NCBI GenBank assembly: GCA_049511795.1
Contig: JBEKXS010000003.1
Span: 1 to 24,296 of the forward strand
DNA from: Candidatus Saccharimonadota bacterium
GTDB lineage: Archaea > Nanobdellota > Nanobdellia > Pacearchaeales > GW2011-AR1
Reading direction: 5' to 3'
DNA: 24,296 nt
Shown: piece after piece, positions 2,790 through 24,296 of the stretch
How the letters are laid out: the number at the start of each line of letters is the position of its first letter
How positions within the stretch are numbered: position 1 is the first letter of the stretch
Notes under the pieces: model-generated
What the model was told of the DNA's origin: nothing
Database searches by the model: none
The model's input: the letters and a program-made list of their open reading frames with translations, nothing else
Position numbers and translations under genes: made by a program

Positions 2790-2810
2790 GGTATCTTAAA
2801 GAAAATGGAA
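2761..2810 (+). repeat. 50-nt gene-boundary element, copy 1 (identical to 23899-23948) with a dyad-symmetric core
   Basis: Perfect 50/50 identity. Hairpin is ATACCCTA (2774-2781) with TAGGGTAT (2787-2794). An overlapping palindrome TACCCT-AA-AGGGTA spans 2775-2788. The element ends with ATGGAA, the first 2 codons of the downstream gene. Confidence 0.9.
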
Positions 2811-3473
2811 ACAAAAACAATAAAGATTTTGAATTTATATGCTGGAATTGGTGGAAATAGAAAACTATGGACAGGAGATATAGAAGTTACGGCAGTAGAG
2901 AATGTTCCAGAGATAGCTAAGATATACCAAGACTTTTTCCCTAATGATAAGGTAATAGTAACAGATGCACACCAATTTTTATTAGAACATTTTAAAGAAT
3001 TTGATTTTATATGGAGTTCTCCACCTTGTCCAAGTCATAGTAGGATAAATACTATGTTAGTAAATGGAAGAGGGTTTAAAGCAAAGTTTCCAGATATGAA
3101 ACTTTATGAAGAGATATTGTTTCTACAAGCATACTTTAAAGGGAAATGGATTGTTGAGAATGTTAGAAGTTTTTATACTCCTTTAATTAAACCACAAGAA
3201 AGAGGTAGACATTATTATTGGAGTAATTTTGAGATAGGATATTTAGGAAAAAGTAAGAAAGTTAGGAATGATAAAGGTTCAATTTTGAGTTTAAAAATGA
3301 AAGATAGAGAAATGGTTGTTAGTGATTTTAAAGATTATAAAGGGGATAAAAGGACTTTGATAAATAATTGTGTAGAACCTATTGTAGGATTATTAATATT
3401 TGAAATGGCTTTCAAGAAACCACAAAAAACTTTATTAGAACAAAAAGGGGGTCTCAATTCCTCCCAAGCTTGA
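2805..3473 (+). CDS. Compact DNA (cytosine-5) methyltransferase, 222 aa; no adjacent restriction endonuclease recognised
   Basis: Motif I LNLYAGIGGN; motif IV SSPPCPSHS (Pro-Cys); motif VI IVENV; motif VIII-like QERGRHYYW; motif X-like NNCVEPIVGLLIF. The target-recognition region is very short. Confidence 0.8.
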   Translation: METKTIKILNLYAGIGGNRKLWTGDIEVTAVENVPEIAKIYQDFFPNDKVIVTDAHQFLLEHFKEFDFIWSSPPCPSHSRINTMLVNGRGFKAKFPDMKLYEEILFLQAYFKGKWIVENVRSFYTPLIKPQERGRHYYWSNFEIGYLGKSKKVRNDKGSILSLKMKDREMVVSDFKDYKGDKRTLINNCVEPIVGLLIFEMAFKKPQKTLLEQKGGLNSSQA

Positions 3474-3504
3474 AAGCATGGGTATCCTTGAGACGATTAT
3501 ATGA
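3443..3504 (+). repeat. 62-nt gene-boundary element, copy 2 (identical to 158-219)
   Basis: Perfect identity. Contains the last 9 codons plus stop of the methyltransferase and the ATG (3501) of the next gene. Confidence 0.9.
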
Positions 3505-3806
3505 ACACAAAAGAATTCTTCACTAAGTGGAAGCAGGGAATAGAAGCAATAACACCTTACCAGCAAGTCAGGGGTCAGTTATTCAGCATAATCCCAATCT
3601 TCATAGGAATTATCATAGGAATAATAGTAACAATAAAATCTCATACTTGGTGGCTTGTCTTAATTTTAGGTGGCTCTTTAATCCTGACTTTCTTCCAATT
3701 TATAGGAATGCTGCAAAGATTTTTAAGGTTGAGAGTCCAAAGAGATATTATGAAGTCCATGCAGGATGTGATTCCAGGAGGTTCAAGTGAAACCAAGACT
3801 CCTTAG
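3501..3806 (+). CDS. Membrane protein, 101 aa, two predicted TM helices
   Basis: ORF track; two hydrophobic stretches (IIPIFIGIIIGIIVTI, WWLVLILGGSLILTFFQFIGM). Confidence 0.6.
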   Translation: MNTKEFFTKWKQGIEAITPYQQVRGQLFSIIPIFIGIIIGIIVTIKSHTWWLVLILGGSLILTFFQFIGMLQRFLRLRVQRDIMKSMQDVIPGGSSETKTP

Positions 3807-6646: not shown

Positions 6647-6868
6647 ATGTTAGGAAATTTAATAACTGGGTTCTTGATTATTCTCGTTGGAGTAAATTTA
6701 GCCCCAACAGTTGCTAACCAGGTAGCTGCACAGACAAGCAATACAAACTTCACAAACGGCTCTTCTGCTGTTCTTAGTTTGGTTACATTGTTCTTTGTCC
6801 TTGCAGTCGCTGTAGCAGCAATGGATATAGCTGTCGTTGGACTCAGACAATCAGGACTTATAATTTAA
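6647..6868 (+). CDS. Major capsid protein candidate 1, fusellovirus VP1/VP3-like two-helix hydrophobic protein (73 aa)
   Basis: MLGNLITGFLIILVGVNLAPTVANQV...NFTNGSSAVLSLVTLFFVLAVAVAAMDIAVVGL. This matches the SSV1 VP1 pattern recalled from memory (..LIGIVLLPVIVSQV .. ATLLNLVPLFYILVLIIVPAVV). Confidence 0.7.
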   Translation: MLGNLITGFLIILVGVNLAPTVANQVAAQTSNTNFTNGSSAVLSLVTLFFVLAVAVAAMDIAVVGLRQSGLII

Positions 6869-6888: not shown

Positions 6889-7152
6889 ATGTTAGGAAAT
6901 TTAATTACAGGATTCTTGATTATCTTGGTTGGAGTGAATATAGCTCCAACAGTCGCATCACAAGTCCAGGTAGCAGTTTATCCATGGTCAAACGGAACAG
7001 GGCCAGGAGCAAACTTGACCCCAAGCGATAACTTCACAAACGGTTCAGGAGCAGTGCTTACACTTGTAACACTATTCTTCGTTTTGGCAGTTGCTGTTGC
7101 TGCGATGGATATTGCAGTAGTAGGCCTTAGACAATCAGGACTCGTCATATAA
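6889..7152 (+). CDS. Major capsid protein candidate 2 (paralog, 87 aa) with a longer inter-helix loop
   Basis: N- and C-terminal helices are nearly identical to 6647..6868. The loop carries a 14-aa insertion. Confidence 0.7.
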   Translation: MLGNLITGFLIILVGVNIAPTVASQVQVAVYPWSNGTGPGANLTPSDNFTNGSGAVLTLVTLFFVLAVAVAAMDIAVVGLRQSGLVI

Positions 7153-19609: not shown

Positions 19610-19884
19610 GAGTTGAAAAAGTATTAAGTTGGATAGGAATATACAAAGAACAAGGTAAATGGAATATAGATTTTAGACAAGTTTATTCAATAATTGGAAT
19701 ACTTTTTTTAATTGGATTAGGTTCTGATGCTTATTTATCTCAACCTATTTTCTGGGATAATTGGGGAATAACAAGTCCTTACATTACAAAGTTTATGATT
19801 ATCTTTATGTTTTTTATAGTTGGTTATTACATTTGGGGATATTTAAGATTATTAAATAGAGTAAATAAATTGGAGAAAAAATGA
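19606..19884 (+). CDS. Membrane protein (92 aa)
   Basis: ORF track; SD AAGGAGGGAGG upstream; two hydrophobic helices. Confidence 0.6.
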   Translation: MRVEKVLSWIGIYKEQGKWNIDFRQVYSIIGILFLIGLGSDAYLSQPIFWDNWGITSPYITKFMIIFMFFIVGYYIWGYLRLLNRVNKLEKK

Positions 19885-20213
19885 CAACCTATGAAGCAGT
19901 AGAAGAAGTATTGGAAGAGAACGAAAAGGCCAGAGATGACGATTTTCTCCTATGTGTTCATGTTTATCTCAAGCTCGGCTTCGCCCACAGAATCCCATTA
20001 GGCATAGTCATTCATTATGACAAGATAGAGTTTGCCCCTGCCTTTGAAACTATTACAAGATGCAGAAGACTGATACAAAATAGAGAGAAACGATTAAGAG
20101 CAACACCTGAAACAGAATTAAGAAGACTAAACAGGGAGATTGAACTGCATACATACTTCTCAAGCAAATCAACTAAATTAGATAGCTTTCCAGGAAGCTG
20201 GATGTTAGGATGA
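19881..20213 (+). CDS. Hypothetical 110-aa protein; its C-terminal 33 codons are duplicated at 21350-21450
   Basis: ORF track; ATGA overlaps; internal motif ITRCRRLIQNREKRLRATPE. Confidence 0.6.
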   Translation: MTTYEAVEEVLEENEKARDDDFLLCVHVYLKLGFAHRIPLGIVIHYDKIEFAPAFETITRCRRLIQNREKRLRATPETELRRLNREIELHTYFSSKSTKLDSFPGSWMLG

Positions 20214-20353
20214 CAGCACAAAAAGCTAAAGATACAGAATCGTTTTTTAGAGAAATACAATTAAGAGGAATGATAGCAAAGCAAAGTCCTTTTTATTGGA
20301 TAAGATATAAGATTTATAGGATAAAAGAATATCTATATTATTATTTAACATGA
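20210..20353 (+). CDS. Hypothetical 47-aa protein
   Basis: Manual; ATGA overlaps at both ends. Confidence 0.35.
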   Translation: MTAQKAKDTESFFREIQLRGMIAKQSPFYWIRYKIYRIKEYLYYYLT

Positions 20354-20425
20354 CACAAAAACAAACAAAACAAACAGAGGAGAGCAAAGAATGAAAACTA
20401 AAAAAGAAATACTAAAGATGACTGA
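20354..20425 (+). repeat. 72-nt perfect repeat, copy 1 (identical to 21585-21656), spanning a leader mini-ORF, the RBS and the first 11 codons of the downstream gene
   Basis: Base-by-base identity checked: CACAAAAACAAACAAAACAAACAGAGGAGAGCAAAGAATGAAAACTAAAAAAGAAATACTAAAGATGACTGA. Confidence 0.9.
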
Positions 20426-20591
20426 CTGGATGGATCTTGAAGGATACTGCAACAAGTCATATTACACTGCATTGAGCTACACGAAGAATTCAATATTCAT
20501 TCACATTGGGCCTTATGCCGCAAAAAAGATGGATGTGCTGCCTAAAGTAAGGGAAATAATCACAATCGCAAAGGAGGTGCAATACAAATGA
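20391..20591 (+). CDS. Hypothetical 66-aa protein (MKTKKEILKMT leader)
   Basis: ORF track. The first 11 codons are identical to those of 21622..21858. Confidence 0.55.
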   Translation: MKTKKEILKMTDWMDLEGYCNKSYYTALSYTKNSIFIHIGPYAAKKMDVLPKVREIITIAKEVQYK

Positions 20592-20947
20592 ACAAAAAAG
20601 GATCTATTCTTAGCAAATTTATTGTTACAGTTCTGATTCTTCTTGCTTTGGCTATTCTTATCTTTGGTATTCCATACAAGACAGTTGTCAATGGAACGCA
20701 TACAGGAATAATCACTGCAGTTGAAACAACAGGAATTTTCTTCAAGACAGTGACTGTTTATGTTAAGACATCTGCCTTCTCTTCTCAGGAAGACCAATAT
20801 TGCCTGAAAAATCAATCATTGATTCCAATGCTGCAGCAATATGAGACTTCTGCTGAGAATGTCACAGTAACTTTTGACAGCTATCTTTGGAATGGATATT
20901 TACATTGCGGAGACGAGTCGGCAGTTGTAACAGGAGTGTTGAAATAA
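20588..20947 (+). CDS. N-terminally anchored protein (119 aa)
   Basis: ORF track; SD AAGGAGGTG upstream; TM helix FIVTVLILLALAILIFGI. Confidence 0.6.
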   Translation: MNKKGSILSKFIVTVLILLALAILIFGIPYKTVVNGTHTGIITAVETTGIFFKTVTVYVKTSAFSSQEDQYCLKNQSLIPMLQQYETSAENVTVTFDSYLWNGYLHCGDESAVVTGVLK

Positions 20948-20948
20948 A

Positions 20949-21374
20949 ATGCCAGAAGGAATAAAGATACGCGCTGTATCTAAGAAAGCTAAAAGGAAAA
21001 AGAAAAGATTAGTTAGACTAACCCTATTTTTGAGAAGATGGATGCCTCCTTTACATATGATTGAGCCATTTATGCTAATCCTTGCATTTGTAATTGTCAC
21101 ACCAACTCTTTTAGGAACTCCCTTTGCATGGCTCTTTGCTTTATGCGCCTTTGAAGTTGCAATGAGGGTTGTAACAAGTGATCTTGAAGAAATATTCAAA
21201 GATGAAATAAAAACAGAAGATATGATTGAAGAAAATAATATCCAAATCTCTCACCTGCAAAGCGATATAAAAAGATTGAGAAGAAAGATGAAAAGGCAGA
21301 AGAAGCTCAACAAACAATTAGAAAAACTGAAAGGAGGCTTCTCCAGAGGCAGAATTAAGAAGATTAAATCATGA
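20949..21374 (+). CDS. Basic N-terminus, TM and coiled-coil protein (141 aa)
   Basis: ORF track; hydrophobic central part; K/R/E-rich heptad-like C-terminus. Confidence 0.55.
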   Translation: MPEGIKIRAVSKKAKRKKKRLVRLTLFLRRWMPPLHMIEPFMLILAFVIVTPTLLGTPFAWLFALCAFEVAMRVVTSDLEEIFKDEIKTEDMIEENNIQISHLQSDIKRLRRKMKRQKKLNKQLEKLKGGFSRGRIKKIKS

Positions 21375-21450
21375 GGTTGAATTGCACACATATTTCTCAA
21401 GTAAATCTGCTCGGATAGACACATTTCCGAATAGCTGGATGAGTCCATGA
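21331..21450 (+). pseudogene. Start-less C-terminal fragment homologous to the end of 19881..20213 (KEASPEAELRRLNHEVELHTYFSSKSARIDTFPNSWMSP*)
   Basis: Ungapped alignment of 21350-21450 with 20113-20213. The frame opens after TGA at 21328-21330 and has no start codon. It is +1 relative to the overlapping ORF 20949..21374. Confidence 0.55.
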
Positions 21451-21581
21451 CACAAACAACTAACCAACCAAATCCCTATAAACAACTAAGAAAAGAAATC
21501 ATACAAATATATTATGAACTTGGAAAAACCTTAGAAAAAGTTGATAGGATATTAAAAAGATTACAGAACGAAACACAATGA
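21447..21581 (+). CDS. Hypothetical 44-aa protein
   Basis: Manual; ATGA overlaps at both ends. Confidence 0.35.
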   Translation: MTQTTNQPNPYKQLRKEIIQIYYELGKTLEKVDRILKRLQNETQ

Positions 21582-21584
21582 CAA

Positions 21585-21656
21585 CACAAAAACAAACAAA
21601 ACAAACAGAGGAGAGCAAAGAATGAAAACTAAAAAAGAAATACTAAAGATGACTGA
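21585..21656 (+). repeat. 72-nt perfect repeat, copy 2 (identical to 20354-20425)
   Basis: Base-by-base identity. Confidence 0.9.
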
Positions 21657-21858
21657 AAAAGAACTTCAAGATTATAAATGGAGTTCTGATTTAGATATTA
21701 AAGAAGAGAAGAAAGAAACTAACTCTGACTGCTCTGACTGCTTTAACTGCTCTAACTGCAGAAACATAAAAACATATTCGAAGTTTATGATATGCAATGT
21801 TCAGCTTACAGAAAAAGAATACAGAAAGAAGATGAAGGAGTTGAAGAATGAAAACTAA
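21622..21858 (+). CDS. Cys-rich 78-aa protein (SDCSDCFNCSNC), MKTKKEILKMT leader
   Basis: ORF track. Confidence 0.55.
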   Translation: MKTKKEILKMTEKELQDYKWSSDLDIKEEKKETNSDCSDCFNCSNCRNIKTYSKFMICNVQLTEKEYRKKMKELKNEN

Positions 21859-22252
21859 AATAACTGAAACAGAAACAGAATACATAGTTAACGGCGACTT
21901 GATACTTACAGAAGATTTCAAGATTTCAAAGCATCTCATAGTTCATGGAGATGTTGAAGGAAAAGACGGCGAGAGATTTAACATAAATGCACGGAACATA
22001 GATGCAGGGAACATAAATGCATGGAACATAGATGCAAGGAACATAGATGCAAGGAACATAAATGCATGGAACATAGATGCAAGGAACATAAATGCATTGG
22101 ACATAAATGCATGGAACATAGATGCATGGAACATAGATGCAAGGAACATAATCTGCGAAACTCGTGTTAAGAAAGATAAGAAATGCAAAACAATAGCGAG
22201 AATTTACATTAAAAATAGAAGCAAAATAAAGAGGAAAGAACATGACGACTGA
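21848..22252 (+). CDS. Pentapeptide-like repeat (beta-solenoid) protein, paralog 1 (134 aa)
   Basis: 11 consecutive 5-aa units (N/D)I(N/D)A(R/W/G/L). Fits a pentapeptide-repeat pattern with D/N at the i-1 position. Confidence 0.7.
   Translation: MKTKITETETEYIVNGDLILTEDFKISKHLIVHGDVEGKDGERFNINARNIDAGNINAWNIDARNIDARNINAWNIDARNINALDINAWNIDAWNIDARNIICETRVKKDKKCKTIARIYIKNRSKIKRKEHDD
21980..22144 (+). repeat. In-frame 15-bp tandem repeat, 11 copies (AACATAGATGCAAGG type)
   Basis: Read directly; the period of 15 matches the 5-aa protein repeat. Confidence 0.9.
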
Positions 22253-22652
22253 AACAGAAACAGAATACATAGTTAACGGCGACTTGATACTTGAAGAAGA
22301 TTTCAAGATTTCGAAAAATCTCATAGTTCACGGAAATATTAAAGGGAAAGACGGCGAGAGATTTAACATAGATGCATTAGACATAGATGCATGGAACATA
22401 GATGCAAGGAACATAGATGCAAGGAACATAAATGCAAGGAACATAAATGCAGGGGACATAAATGCATGGGACATAAATGCAGGGGACATAGATGCAGGGG
22501 ACATAAATGCAGGGAACATAAATGCATGGAACATAAATGCATTAGACATAATCTGCGAAACTCGTATTAAGAAGTTAAAGGAATGCAAAACAAAGGCGAG
22601 AATTTACATTAAAAATAAAAACAAAATAGAGAGGAAAGAATATGACGACTAA
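22242..22652 (+). CDS. Pentapeptide-like repeat (beta-solenoid) protein, paralog 2 (136 aa)
   Basis: 12 consecutive 5-aa units. N- and C-terminal flanks are highly similar to 21848..22252. Confidence 0.7.
   Translation: MTTETETEYIVNGDLILEEDFKISKNLIVHGNIKGKDGERFNIDALDIDAWNIDARNIDARNINARNINAGDINAWDINAGDIDAGDINAGNINAWNINALDIICETRIKKLKECKTKARIYIKNKNKIERKEYDD
22365..22544 (+). repeat. In-frame 15-bp tandem repeat, 12 copies
   Basis: Read directly. Confidence 0.9.
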
Positions 22653-23623: not shown

Positions 23624-23778
23624 TTAGAACTGAAATTTGTGGGTGTAAATATCTTTTGGATATAGATGGAACTAAAACTTTCGTAGCATTTTGTAAAGAA
23701 CATTCTTTTCTTAATTTTGGAAGGCATCCAAATCAAATAAAACCAATTGTAAAATCGGGGGAAAAATTAAGCAAATGA
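23620..23778 (+). CDS. 52-aa Cys-containing protein (MIRTEICGCK...), N-terminus similar to 22642 ORF
   Basis: Manual; ATGA overlaps at both ends. Confidence 0.4.
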   Translation: MIRTEICGCKYLLDIDGTKTFVAFCKEHSFLNFGRHPNQIKPIVKSGEKLSK

Positions 23779-23897
23779 CACAAAAACAAATAAAACAAGA
23801 ACTTAAGAGAAAGGTTGAAGAAAGAGATTGGATAATAATAGCATTAGTAATATTATGGTTTTTAACTTTAGCTTTTTTTAATATGGGTTTATGGTAA
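23775..23897 (+). CDS. 40-aa single-pass membrane protein with MTQKQ leader
   Basis: Manual translation gives MTQKQIKQELKRKVEERDWIIIALVILWFLTLAFFNMGLW*. The leader is identical at nt level to the 216 ORF start. Confidence 0.45.
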   Translation: MTQKQIKQELKRKVEERDWIIIALVILWFLTLAFFNMGLW

Positions 23898-23898
23898 A

Positions 23899-23948
23899 AT
23901 GACATACTCCCATACCCTAAAGGGTAGGGTATCTTAAAGAAAATGGAA
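23899..23948 (+). repeat. 50-nt gene-boundary element, copy 2 (identical to 2761-2810)
   Basis: Perfect identity; hairpin at 23912-23932. Confidence 0.9.
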
Positions 23949-24296
23949 CTAAAGCAATTTATAAAACAAATACCAACACCAGAAGAAACACTTGTTGATT
24001 ATGATAAAAAGATAGCCGAACAAAAAGCTGAATATTATAGAAAGAACAAAGACAAGATAGCCGAATATCGTAGAAAGAACAAAGACAAGATAGCCGAATA
24101 TTTAGCTGAATATTATAGAAAGAACAAAGACAAGATAGCCGAATATTTAGCTGAATATTATAGAAAGAACAAAGACAAGATAGCCGAATATCGTAGAAAG
24201 AACAAAGACAAGATAGCCGAACAAAAAGCTGAATATTATAGAAAGAACAAAGACAAGATAGCTGAATATTTAGCTGAATATTATAGAAAGAACAAA
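23943..24296 (+). CDS. 5' part of the KIAEY/YRKNKDKI repeat protein (no stop in window; continues at nt 3..188 if circular)
   Basis: MELKQFIKQIPTPEETLVDYDK, followed by units KIAEQKAEYYRKNKD, KIAEYRRKNKD and KIAEYLAEYYRKNKD. There are 118 complete codons to the window edge. Confidence 0.7.
   Translation, partial: MELKQFIKQIPTPEETLVDYDKKIAEQKAEYYRKNKDKIAEYRRKNKDKIAEYLAEYYRKNKDKIAEYLAEYYRKNKDKIAEYRRKNKDKIAEQKAEYYRKNKDKIAEYLAEYYRKNK
24008..24296 (+). repeat. Coding tandem-repeat array of 33- and 45-bp units (continues into nt 1-125)
   Basis: Unit order read directly: 45a, 33b, 45c, 45c, 33b, 45a, 45c. Confidence 0.85.
24175..24296. repeat. Terminal direct overlap (identical to nt 1-122)
   Basis: See the first feature. 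Confidence 0.9.

Follow-up and report, generated by a model that had tools for sequence, protein, structure and literature searches.

Shared gene starts and a present-or-absent accessory cassette in a circular, virus-like element binned with Pacearchaeota

Part of a small circular, virus-like element appears to be an accessory cassette that is present in some copies and absent from others, and we consider it likely that this cassette is reshuffled by homology-driven recombination between gene 5′ ends that are shared by different genes. The element was read from a stretch of 24,296 nucleotides (nt), hereafter the window, which comprises positions 1 to 24,296 of contig JBEKXS010000003.1 in GenBank assembly GCA_049511795.1 (named Candidatus Saccharimonadota bacterium and placed by GTDB in the archaeal Pacearchaeales); all coordinates refer to it. 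The window is one unit of a circular element of ~24,174 base pairs (bp), with a terminal redundancy of 122 nt (1-122 is identical to 24175-24296). In its long form the region runs from a gene that we call X through orf47, an open reading frame (ORF) of 47 amino acids (aa), to a short direct repeat, J. Then follow orf66, orf119, orf141, the remnant of a second X-family gene (X′), orf44 and a second copy of J, and after these orf78. The short form retains X, orf47, a single J and orf78. The features of the region are as follows.

19881-20213, + strand: gene X (110 aa), intact, of a ~110-aa family of diverse integrase-bearing elements.
20106-20215, + strand: copy A of a diverged repeat, the last 35 codons and stop of X (PETELRRLNREIELHTYFSSKSTKLDSFPGSWMLG, then stop).
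20210-20353, + strand: orf47 (47 aa), with a start codon that shares an ATGA with the stop codon of X; publicly annotated as a gene.
20350-20394, + strand: mini-ORF A (MTQKQTKQTEESKE, then stop), with an ATGA overlap at either end.
20353-20425, + strand: J copy A, consisting of the mini-ORF body, GAGGAG, an ATG, and the first 11 codons plus 2 nt.
20391-20591, + strand: orf66 (66 aa), a chimeric ORF with 11 N-terminal codons of the orf78 family and an orphan body.
20588-20947, + strand: orf119 (119 aa), a cargo ORF with an N-terminal hydrophobic segment.
20949-21374, + strand: orf141 (141 aa), an orphan ORF that has hydrophobic segments and ends in a basic, coiled-coil-like tail.
21331-21450, + strand: X′ remnant, the 3′ end of a second X-family gene (KEASPEAELRRLNHEVELHTYFSSKSARIDTFPNSWMSP, then stop), without a start codon.
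21447-21581, + strand: orf44 (44 aa), with an ATGA overlap with X′; a gene in only some public annotations.
21578-21625, + strand: mini-ORF B (MTTQKQTKQTEESKE, then stop), identical over 16 nt to the gene start at 403.
21584-21656, + strand: J copy B, in its native position before the 21622 gene.
21622-21858, + strand: orf78 (78 aa), a Cys-rich protein with CSxCSxC repeats, native owner of the MKTKKEILKMT start.
20426-21656 (equivalently 20353-21583): the 1,231-bp segment that is missing from the short form (contigs L005 and L007).

Two repeats of very different character structure this region. The first, J, is a perfect direct repeat of 73 nt (20353-20425 and 21584-21656, 73/73 identical); the first-pass annotation had recognized it correctly, at 72 nt, having stopped one base short on the left. 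When up to three mismatches are allowed, J has two matches in the window, whereas none is expected from 100 shuffles, and when a 3-nt indel is allowed the homology on its left reaches the ATG of both mini-ORFs (20350 and 21578). As previously described, the two copies contain a mini-ORF of 14 or 15 codons, a GAGGAG, and the codons for MKTKKEILKMT at the start of two otherwise unrelated ORFs; in both, the GAGGAG is located 8 nt upstream of the ATG. The second repeat, earlier described as a diverged copy of 101 nt, is real and slightly longer: positions 20106-20215 align without gaps to 21343-21452, with 72% identity over 110 nt. Over 108 nt there are 77 identities against a background of 29.2 +/- 4.8 (z = 9.9), and the next best match on either strand of the whole window has 49. 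An ATGA stop/start overlap indeed follows each diverged copy (20210-20213 and 21447-21450), and the 47-aa and 44-aa ORFs that start there are without clear similarity to each other, with a marginal score of 8 against shuffles of -5.6 +/- 5.0 (maximum 10). Divergence is thus uneven, with 73/73 positions identical in J and 77/108 at the end of X (Fisher p = 2e-8), and the middle segments are essentially unrelated. Therefore, the region did not arise by one simple duplication followed by uniform decay, and a simple, single intragenomic (tandem or segmental) duplication is ruled out.

Natural alleles of the region exist. Contigs L005 (JGI 3300038417) and L007 (Logan SRR12951270, k=31) carry the short form, in which X, orf47, a single J and orf78 follow one another; this is the deletion of 20426-21656 between the J copies that the first-pass annotation had predicted. 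The flank upstream is 100% identical to the window over 3,050 nt in L007 and has one mismatch in 4,642 nt in L005, and the downstream flank is exact for 217-293 nt, until the contig ends (L007) or a variable-repeat gene begins (L005). The long form is found in at least 12 other contigs (L001-L004, L009, L020-L023, L028, L029 and L038), which come from several pipelines and support both sides of both J copies as well as the join between orf141 and X′. Thus, the duplication is not an artefact of assembly. In a third allele, J is joined to a 134-aa gene over an identical 17-nt start and orf78 is deleted (window 21635-21860). This allele is located at the end of contig JAFMOA010001199.1 (L026:5194-5314), the other end of which keeps orf78 intact. 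The 17-nt gene start, AAGAATGAAAACTAAAA, has three copies, at 20387, 21618 (21618-21634) and 21844 (21844-21860, + strand). Apart from rearrangements and changes in repeat number, contigs of this lineage are >99.9% identical, with about 1 point difference per 5-10 kb; therefore, rearrangement at shared starts outpaces point mutation.

The possibility that a repeat of this kind misled the assemblers, such that either the duplication or the short form is spurious, must be considered, given that J is the exact breakpoint of several low-coverage contigs (L006, L008, L020, L021 and L037) and hence does perturb assembly graphs. However, the orf47-J-orf66, orf44-J-orf78, orf141-X′ and orf47-J-orf78 junctions are each spanned, in assemblies made with metaSPAdes, MEGAHIT k141 and Logan k31, and no orf66 or orf141 contig from the short-form samples is among the matches listed. 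We regard an assembly origin as extremely unlikely.

The 134-aa gene belongs to a pair of tandem paralogous genes (21848-22252 and 22242-22652) made of 15-nt repeats that encode NIDAR/NINAW pentapeptides. It varies in repeat number, with 134 aa in the window and 154 aa in L005 (L005:4834-5298), and single-nucleotide polymorphisms cluster within the 15-nt repeats of these paralogs.

The origin of J can be read from the genes that it precedes. There are 25 homologs of orf78, which are spread over many unrelated viral contigs. A MKTK(K/E)EILKM-type start is kept in 22/22 aligned homologs, and in all 23 sequences of the alignment, and is followed by YKW..DL, Cys-rich CSxCSxC repeats and a conserved ICNVQLTKEEY tail. 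By contrast, orf66 shares only its first 11 residues with this family and has no meaningful homolog. Since the orf78 family keeps the MKTK start, the 11 codons are native to orf78, and orf66 is a chimera; the two genes do not share these codons on equal terms, as had been assumed, and in the 20391 gene they are secondary. The right part of J, which begins at the ATG, consists of the opening 35 nt of the 21622 gene. Its left part resembles the 5′ ends of the small-membrane-protein genes at 216-407 and 23775-23897 (16-19 nt exact; 42 nt at 69-76% identity), and mini-ORF A is, judging by this resemblance, the 5′ remnant of a gene of that type. The GAGGAG, which provides Glu-Glu codons of the mini-ORF, probably also serves as a ribosome-binding site. 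Taken together, J looks like a composite, A-rich and unstructured translation-initiation module derived from two older gene 5′ ends. In the contig IMGVR_UViG_3300009285_006738 (L041), DNA similarity to the window begins exactly at the ATG of orf78 (84% over 138 nt), and what lies upstream of the homolog is a hairpin cassette like that at 155-230, not J; likewise, no J-like left half was seen before orf78 homologs elsewhere.

J was also considered as a structured RNA or a palindromic recombination site, and both were rejected, as it has neither fold nor dyad. The two copies have minimum free energies (MFE) of -1.8 and -0.4 kcal/mol, which are not better than those of shuffled sequences, and there is no inverted repeat of 8 nt or more in 20340-20440. 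No terminator-like site was found in 19800-22000. Sigma-70-type sites were not enriched (5 against 7.6 expected), although the host is probably archaeal, and direct reading finds A/T-rich, TATA-like stretches upstream of both J copies.

These properties bear on two other explanations of J. The element encodes a serine recombinase, and J could in principle be its site-specific target, in which case the block would be a cassette excised much as in resolvase or integron systems:

1907-2596: serine recombinase of the resolvase/invertase family (Pfam Resolvase, E = 1.5e-34).

Resolvases do delete DNA between directly repeated sites, and a recombinase of the resolvase/invertase family is encoded here, its presence being the extent of the connection, as nothing was found that links it to J. 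However, J lacks any inverted-repeat or dyad structure, shows strong strand asymmetry and falls exactly on a translation-initiation region and coding sequence. Given that the second rearrangement uses a different, 17-nt repeat and that J is without dyad symmetry, site-specific recombination is very unlikely, and homology is indicated instead. Alternatively, selection on a shared regulatory leader, made up of an upstream ORF, a ribosome-binding site and an unstructured start, may have kept the copies of J identical. The unusually unstructured, A-rich character of J and the ATGA-coupled mini-ORF in both copies fit this idea, as does a ATAGGATA..AAAAGA motif 40-46 nt upstream of each. Yet selection on translation signals rarely fixes 73/73 nt including synonymous positions, orf78 homologs vary at synonymous sites in the same codons, and the left half of J does not precede those homologs elsewhere, so that we find this explanation quite improbable. 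The upstream motif in its fuller form, T.ATAGGATA..AAAAGA (20307-20325 and 21541-21560), sits within the otherwise unrelated 47-aa and 44-aa ORFs and might be a promoter-like element of J-led genes.

The diverged repeat has a different history. Copy B had been taken as a reused gene junction; a feature overlooked at that time is that it lies out of frame with the ORF at 20949-21374, which runs into it. The X′ frame opens only at 21331, directly after a TGA at 21328-21330, and is +1 relative to orf141, whose final ~12 codons read X′ out of frame. Homology to X starts at ~21337-21343, and copy B, read in the X-equivalent frame, gives PEAELRRLNHEVELHTYFSSKSARIDTFPNSWMSP and a stop. The two other frames of the diverged repeat contain stops. 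Between X and X′ there are 11 synonymous and 10 replacement codon changes, the latter mostly conservative, and 26/36 amino acids are identical, compared with 16.4 +/- 1.9 when equal substitutions are placed at random (p < 5e-5). The X family comprises 11 proteins that are 44-68% identical to X, share the signature ...ARDDDFLL...FETITR.RR.IQN...FPNSWM.P and end in ...FPNSWM.P. The 39-aa translation of X′ aligns with the C-terminal tail of all full-length members; it is 67% identical to X, equal to the best in the family, and spans only residues ~72-110 of 110. The contexts of these relatives (L010-L014) are unrelated integrase-bearing elements, and no X relative was found in IMG/VR. In an AlphaFold2 model of X (predicted local distance difference test, pLDDT, 87.6), a compact, winged-helix-like N-domain (residues 1-68) is connected by a linker to a long helix (76-94), after which the chain ends in a flexible tail; comparison with the PDB gave no significant neighbor for this fold (best E-value 2.5), the top matches being winged-helix proteins. 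The X′ fragment corresponds to the C-terminal helix and tail of this model, which would place the breakpoint inside the gene, at X residue ~74-76 in the linker that precedes the C-terminal helix. The simplest reading is that X′ diverged under protein-level selection as a working gene in another lineage. On this reading X′, which is truncated at its 5′ end and out of frame, is a scar of recombination rather than a reused junction, and a non-homologous join at ~21331-21340 would have truncated it after the divergence. Nor can orf44 be coupled through its ATGA overlap, as had been suggested, given that no translated upstream frame exists to couple to; for this reason, and because no clear ribosome-binding site precedes it, orf44 is probably stranded.

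A functional X′ would require that the 20949 ORF be fused to the X-type helix and tail by a programmed +1 frameshift at CTG-AAA-G (21327-21333), yielding a predicted fusion peptide ...LEKLKEASPEAELR... and two proteins with one C-terminal module in common. The X′ frame has the signature of protein-level selection and no internal stop, it opens exactly at AAA-G, where tRNA-Lys could re-pair in the +1 frame, and X′ begins at what the model of X places as the linker before the C-terminal helix. The upstream ORF, moreover, finishes with a helical, basic segment. The selection signature is explained equally well by divergence before truncation, however. The A-site has no rare, hungry or stop codon, the Shine-Dalgarno-like GGAGG sits 3′ of the putative shift site and not 5′ as in prfB, and AAAG is very common in an A-rich genome. 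Conservation of the arrangement has no comparison because orf141 lacks homologs (it finds only itself among 5.8 billion proteins), and the short form dispenses with the whole block. Frameshifting is therefore highly improbable in our view. Searches of the cassette ORFs against Pfam and PHROG gave nothing above noise.

Based on these observations, we propose the following sequence of events. Diverged relatives would have recombined across gene ends and built the long form, and at least one non-homologous join would have captured ~0.9 kb of orphan cargo, with the orf66 chimera and the X′ stump as its scars. The perfect copies of J could then serve as substrates for homology-driven recombination or replication slippage. 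An event between them would remove 1,231 bp and yield the scar-free short form X, orf47, J, orf78, and the excised 1,231-bp circle could in principle re-insert; no orf44-J-orf66 junction, of the type expected from such a circle, was present among the fetched contigs. The same process at the 17-nt shared start would delete orf78.

The opposite direction deserves consideration. The short form may be ancestral, and a J-bearing circle or fragment may have inserted into J by Campbell-type integration, so that the polymorphism would represent a gain. The short form holds only intact genes and the native junction of J with orf78, one crossover at J would be enough to generate two identical copies of it, and the mini-circles of a phage system discussed below, the promoter-early stem-loop (PeSL), provide a precedent for reversible insertion (PMC2839356). 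On the other hand, the inserted piece must already have carried both scars, the orf66 fusion and the truncated X′, and must therefore stem from a pre-existing arrangement like the long form. The long form is also commoner among the contigs seen, and the identity of the flanks is equally compatible with deletion. We thus hold an insertion to be somewhat unlikely and favor deletion over insertion fairly clearly.

Several points weigh against recombination between shared 5′ ends as we have set it out. The short form is the scar-free arrangement and is therefore possibly ancestral, with the long form made by insertion. A perfect J beside an X end of 72% identity calls for a very recent exchange, for gene conversion, or for J to be strongly conserved. 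A genome with a full-length X′ that could have been the donor is absent among the 11 X-family proteins found, and scans for exact J with 38-nt and 22-nt patterns found none in IMG/VR or JGI metagenome contigs. All alleles and junctions are known from assembled contigs; the third allele rests on the final 87 nt of one contig, and L005 and L007 may represent one sample (JGI data in SRA), in which case they are two assemblies and not two samples.

The element as a whole has a G+C content of ~34%, and nearly all of its genes lie on the + strand as chains of ATGA-overlapping ORFs. In addition to the small serine recombinase, it encodes a C5-methyltransferase-like protein, 3 HNH-type or Vsr-like nucleases and a winged-helix protein; many of the remaining ORFs could not be assigned to a family in Pfam and PHROG searches. 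Rfam and tRNA scans of the window gave no matches. The element is 99.97-100% identical to a contig of GCA_017886315.1, for which the NCBI protein label is 'Candidatus Pacearchaeota archaeon', and it was met again in JGI, ENA and Logan assemblies. GenBank phage records contain no relative and no match for the whole window. We conclude that the element is virus-like and circular, is binned with the metagenome-assembled genome (MAG) of a Pacearchaeota (DPANN) archaeon, and is probably of archaeal origin. The GCA_017886315.1 MAG contains two near-identical, circularly permuted contigs of the element, JAFMOA010001204.1 (L001/L015) and JAFMOA010001199.1 (L019/L026), and the host assignment is therefore one of binning only. 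The terminal redundancy (1-170 and 23960-24296) falls within a coding tandem array with periods of 45 and 33 nt, and a gene starting at 23943 spans the contig ends, so that the precise length of one circle unit hinges on the assembly of this array; public contigs of the element measure 24,301 and 24,338 nt. Two neighboring paralogous genes (6647-6868 and 6889-7152) encode small hydrophobic proteins of 73 and 87 aa. The 73-aa protein has a faint, sub-threshold match over nearly its full length to the His1 virus capsid family PF25665 (E = 0.046), which hints at a spindle-shaped archaeal virus. The C5-cytosine methyltransferase-like ORF (2805-3473, 222 aa) covers only positions 1-112 of 324 in the Pfam profile and is possibly truncated or split; at its 3′ end it runs into the second copy of a hairpin cassette (3440-3515).

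Shared gene starts are not confined to J. Outside tandem arrays, 9 of the 13 exact repeats of at least 16 nt overlap gene or mini-ORF starts, and start windows make up 13% of the genome. The earlier proposal that the accessory region was assembled by recombination at gene boundaries is thus supported for the shared starts (J, the 17-nt start and these repeats) and not for X′, whose breakpoint is intragenic. A 76-nt hairpin cassette (155-230 and 3440-3515; MFE -18.7 kcal/mol) ends in ...TTGAGAC.ATTATATG at the start codon and precedes two different genes in the window. It also precedes the orf78 homolog of L041 (L041:2940-3003), a contig otherwise unrelated to the window, where the inner stem differs and still pairs (GCU/AGC vs GCAU/AUGC). 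From this distribution, cassette and gene look horizontally mobile. A search of IMG/VR for further copies gave 43 matches to a 15-mer, only that in L041 being a full element and the rest chance. A direct repeat of 58 nt (2758-2815 and 23896-23953; 95% identical, 50 nt exact) with a perfect 8-bp stem, ATACCCTA..TAGGGTAT, adjoins the serine recombinase block downstream and precedes two gene starts; it could be a regulatory or recombination site. An intergenic mini-ORF at 552-599 (MTTETEIFGDDAELK, then stop), whose first 25 nt are 84-92% identical to the gene starts at 22242 and 22642, looks like a second stranded gene 5′ end. It is conceivable, if rather doubtful, that J, the 17-nt MKTK start, the MTQKQ and MTTETE starts, the hairpin cassettes at 155-230/3440-3515 and the repeats at 2758-2815/23896-23953 together form a selected cassette-exchange system of archaeal viruses, a reading that the sharing of the 155-230 cassette and orf78 with an unrelated IMG/VR contig fits. 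If so, unstructured initiation modules would be portable recombination handles by which orphan genes are reversibly gained and lost through small circles and genes traffic between unrelated viruses, an archaeal counterpart of PeSL shuffling that acts on coding 5′ ends.

Irrespective of such a system, the region documents, at the level of a population, how modular evolution proceeds in an uncultivated and probably DPANN-archaeal virus-like element, where recombination at shared gene 5′ ends is all that separates three structural alleles. It suggests that gene-start sequences are able to act as recombination handles and that events at gene starts create chimeric N-termini and stranded gene fragments. 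For annotation it advises caution, as a divergent 'duplicated' coding end can bear an inherited signature of selection without being expressed.

The mechanism that we favor is ordinary homologous or illegitimate recombination and matches what is known from phages. Deletion between direct repeats, by RecA/RadA-dependent recombination or by replication slippage, is known in viral and plasmid genomes; the loss of one repeat and the intervening DNA in L005 and L007 fits it exactly, and nothing mechanistic differs. The present case stands out for how well it is documented, with three alleles in a single natural population. Tailed phages are mosaics shaped by illegitimate recombination, in which extra orphan genes (morons) stand between genes that are adjacent in a relative and truncated fragments remain as scars of non-homologous joins. 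This picture reportedly goes back to Hendrix and colleagues, and a boundary-sequence model is said to be that of Susskind and Botstein and of Clark et al. Similarly, orphan genes here stand between genes that are adjacent in a relative (orf47-J-orf78), and X′ resembles a truncated-gene scar. Unlike morons, the cassette has no evident autonomous promoter or terminator and is embedded in a chain of ATGA-coupled ORFs.

A closer parallel is found in mycobacteriophages Island3 and Brujita, in which an orphan gene (Island3 gp67/gp68) is present or absent between ~50-bp related flanks in which a C-terminal coding end is repeated (Pope et al. 2011, PMC3029335). This was read as intramolecular deletion or intermolecular exchange at short homologies near gene boundaries (PMC3029335). 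Orphan cargo present or absent between close relatives, related flanking sequences and a repeated C-terminal coding end are common to both cases. Here, however, the recombining repeat lies at gene 5′ ends and is perfect over 73 nt, the crossover does not take place in the repeated 3′ end, X′, which is out of frame, and both alleles occur within one >99.9%-identical population.

The closest described analog is PeSL shuffling in T4-type phages. PeSL units are conserved sequences of ~50-100 bp whose last elements are a Shine-Dalgarno sequence and a start codon (Arbiol et al. 2010, PMC2839356; Comeau et al. 2014, PMC4122927). A strong promoter and a stable stem-loop that acts as terminator or attenuator define them. 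Orphan genes of the variable genome portion lie next to these units, indels that distinguish near-identical phages are explained by recombination between neighboring units, and an excised mini-circle with one chimeric unit has been proposed as a reversible route (PMC2839356). Likewise, J carries the Shine-Dalgarno sequence and start codon of the downstream gene and flanks the orphans orf66 and orf141, and the 1,231-bp indel between 99.98-100% identical flanks maps to it. J differs in that it has no stem-loop, terminator or recognizable promoter, is built from two gene 5′ ends, occurs in 2-3 copies compared with ~50, and belongs to a probably archaeal element. It also reaches 11 codons into coding sequence and hence gives recombinants with chimeric N-termini. 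By analogy, then, J seems to work as PeSL units do, and yet it is no PeSL.

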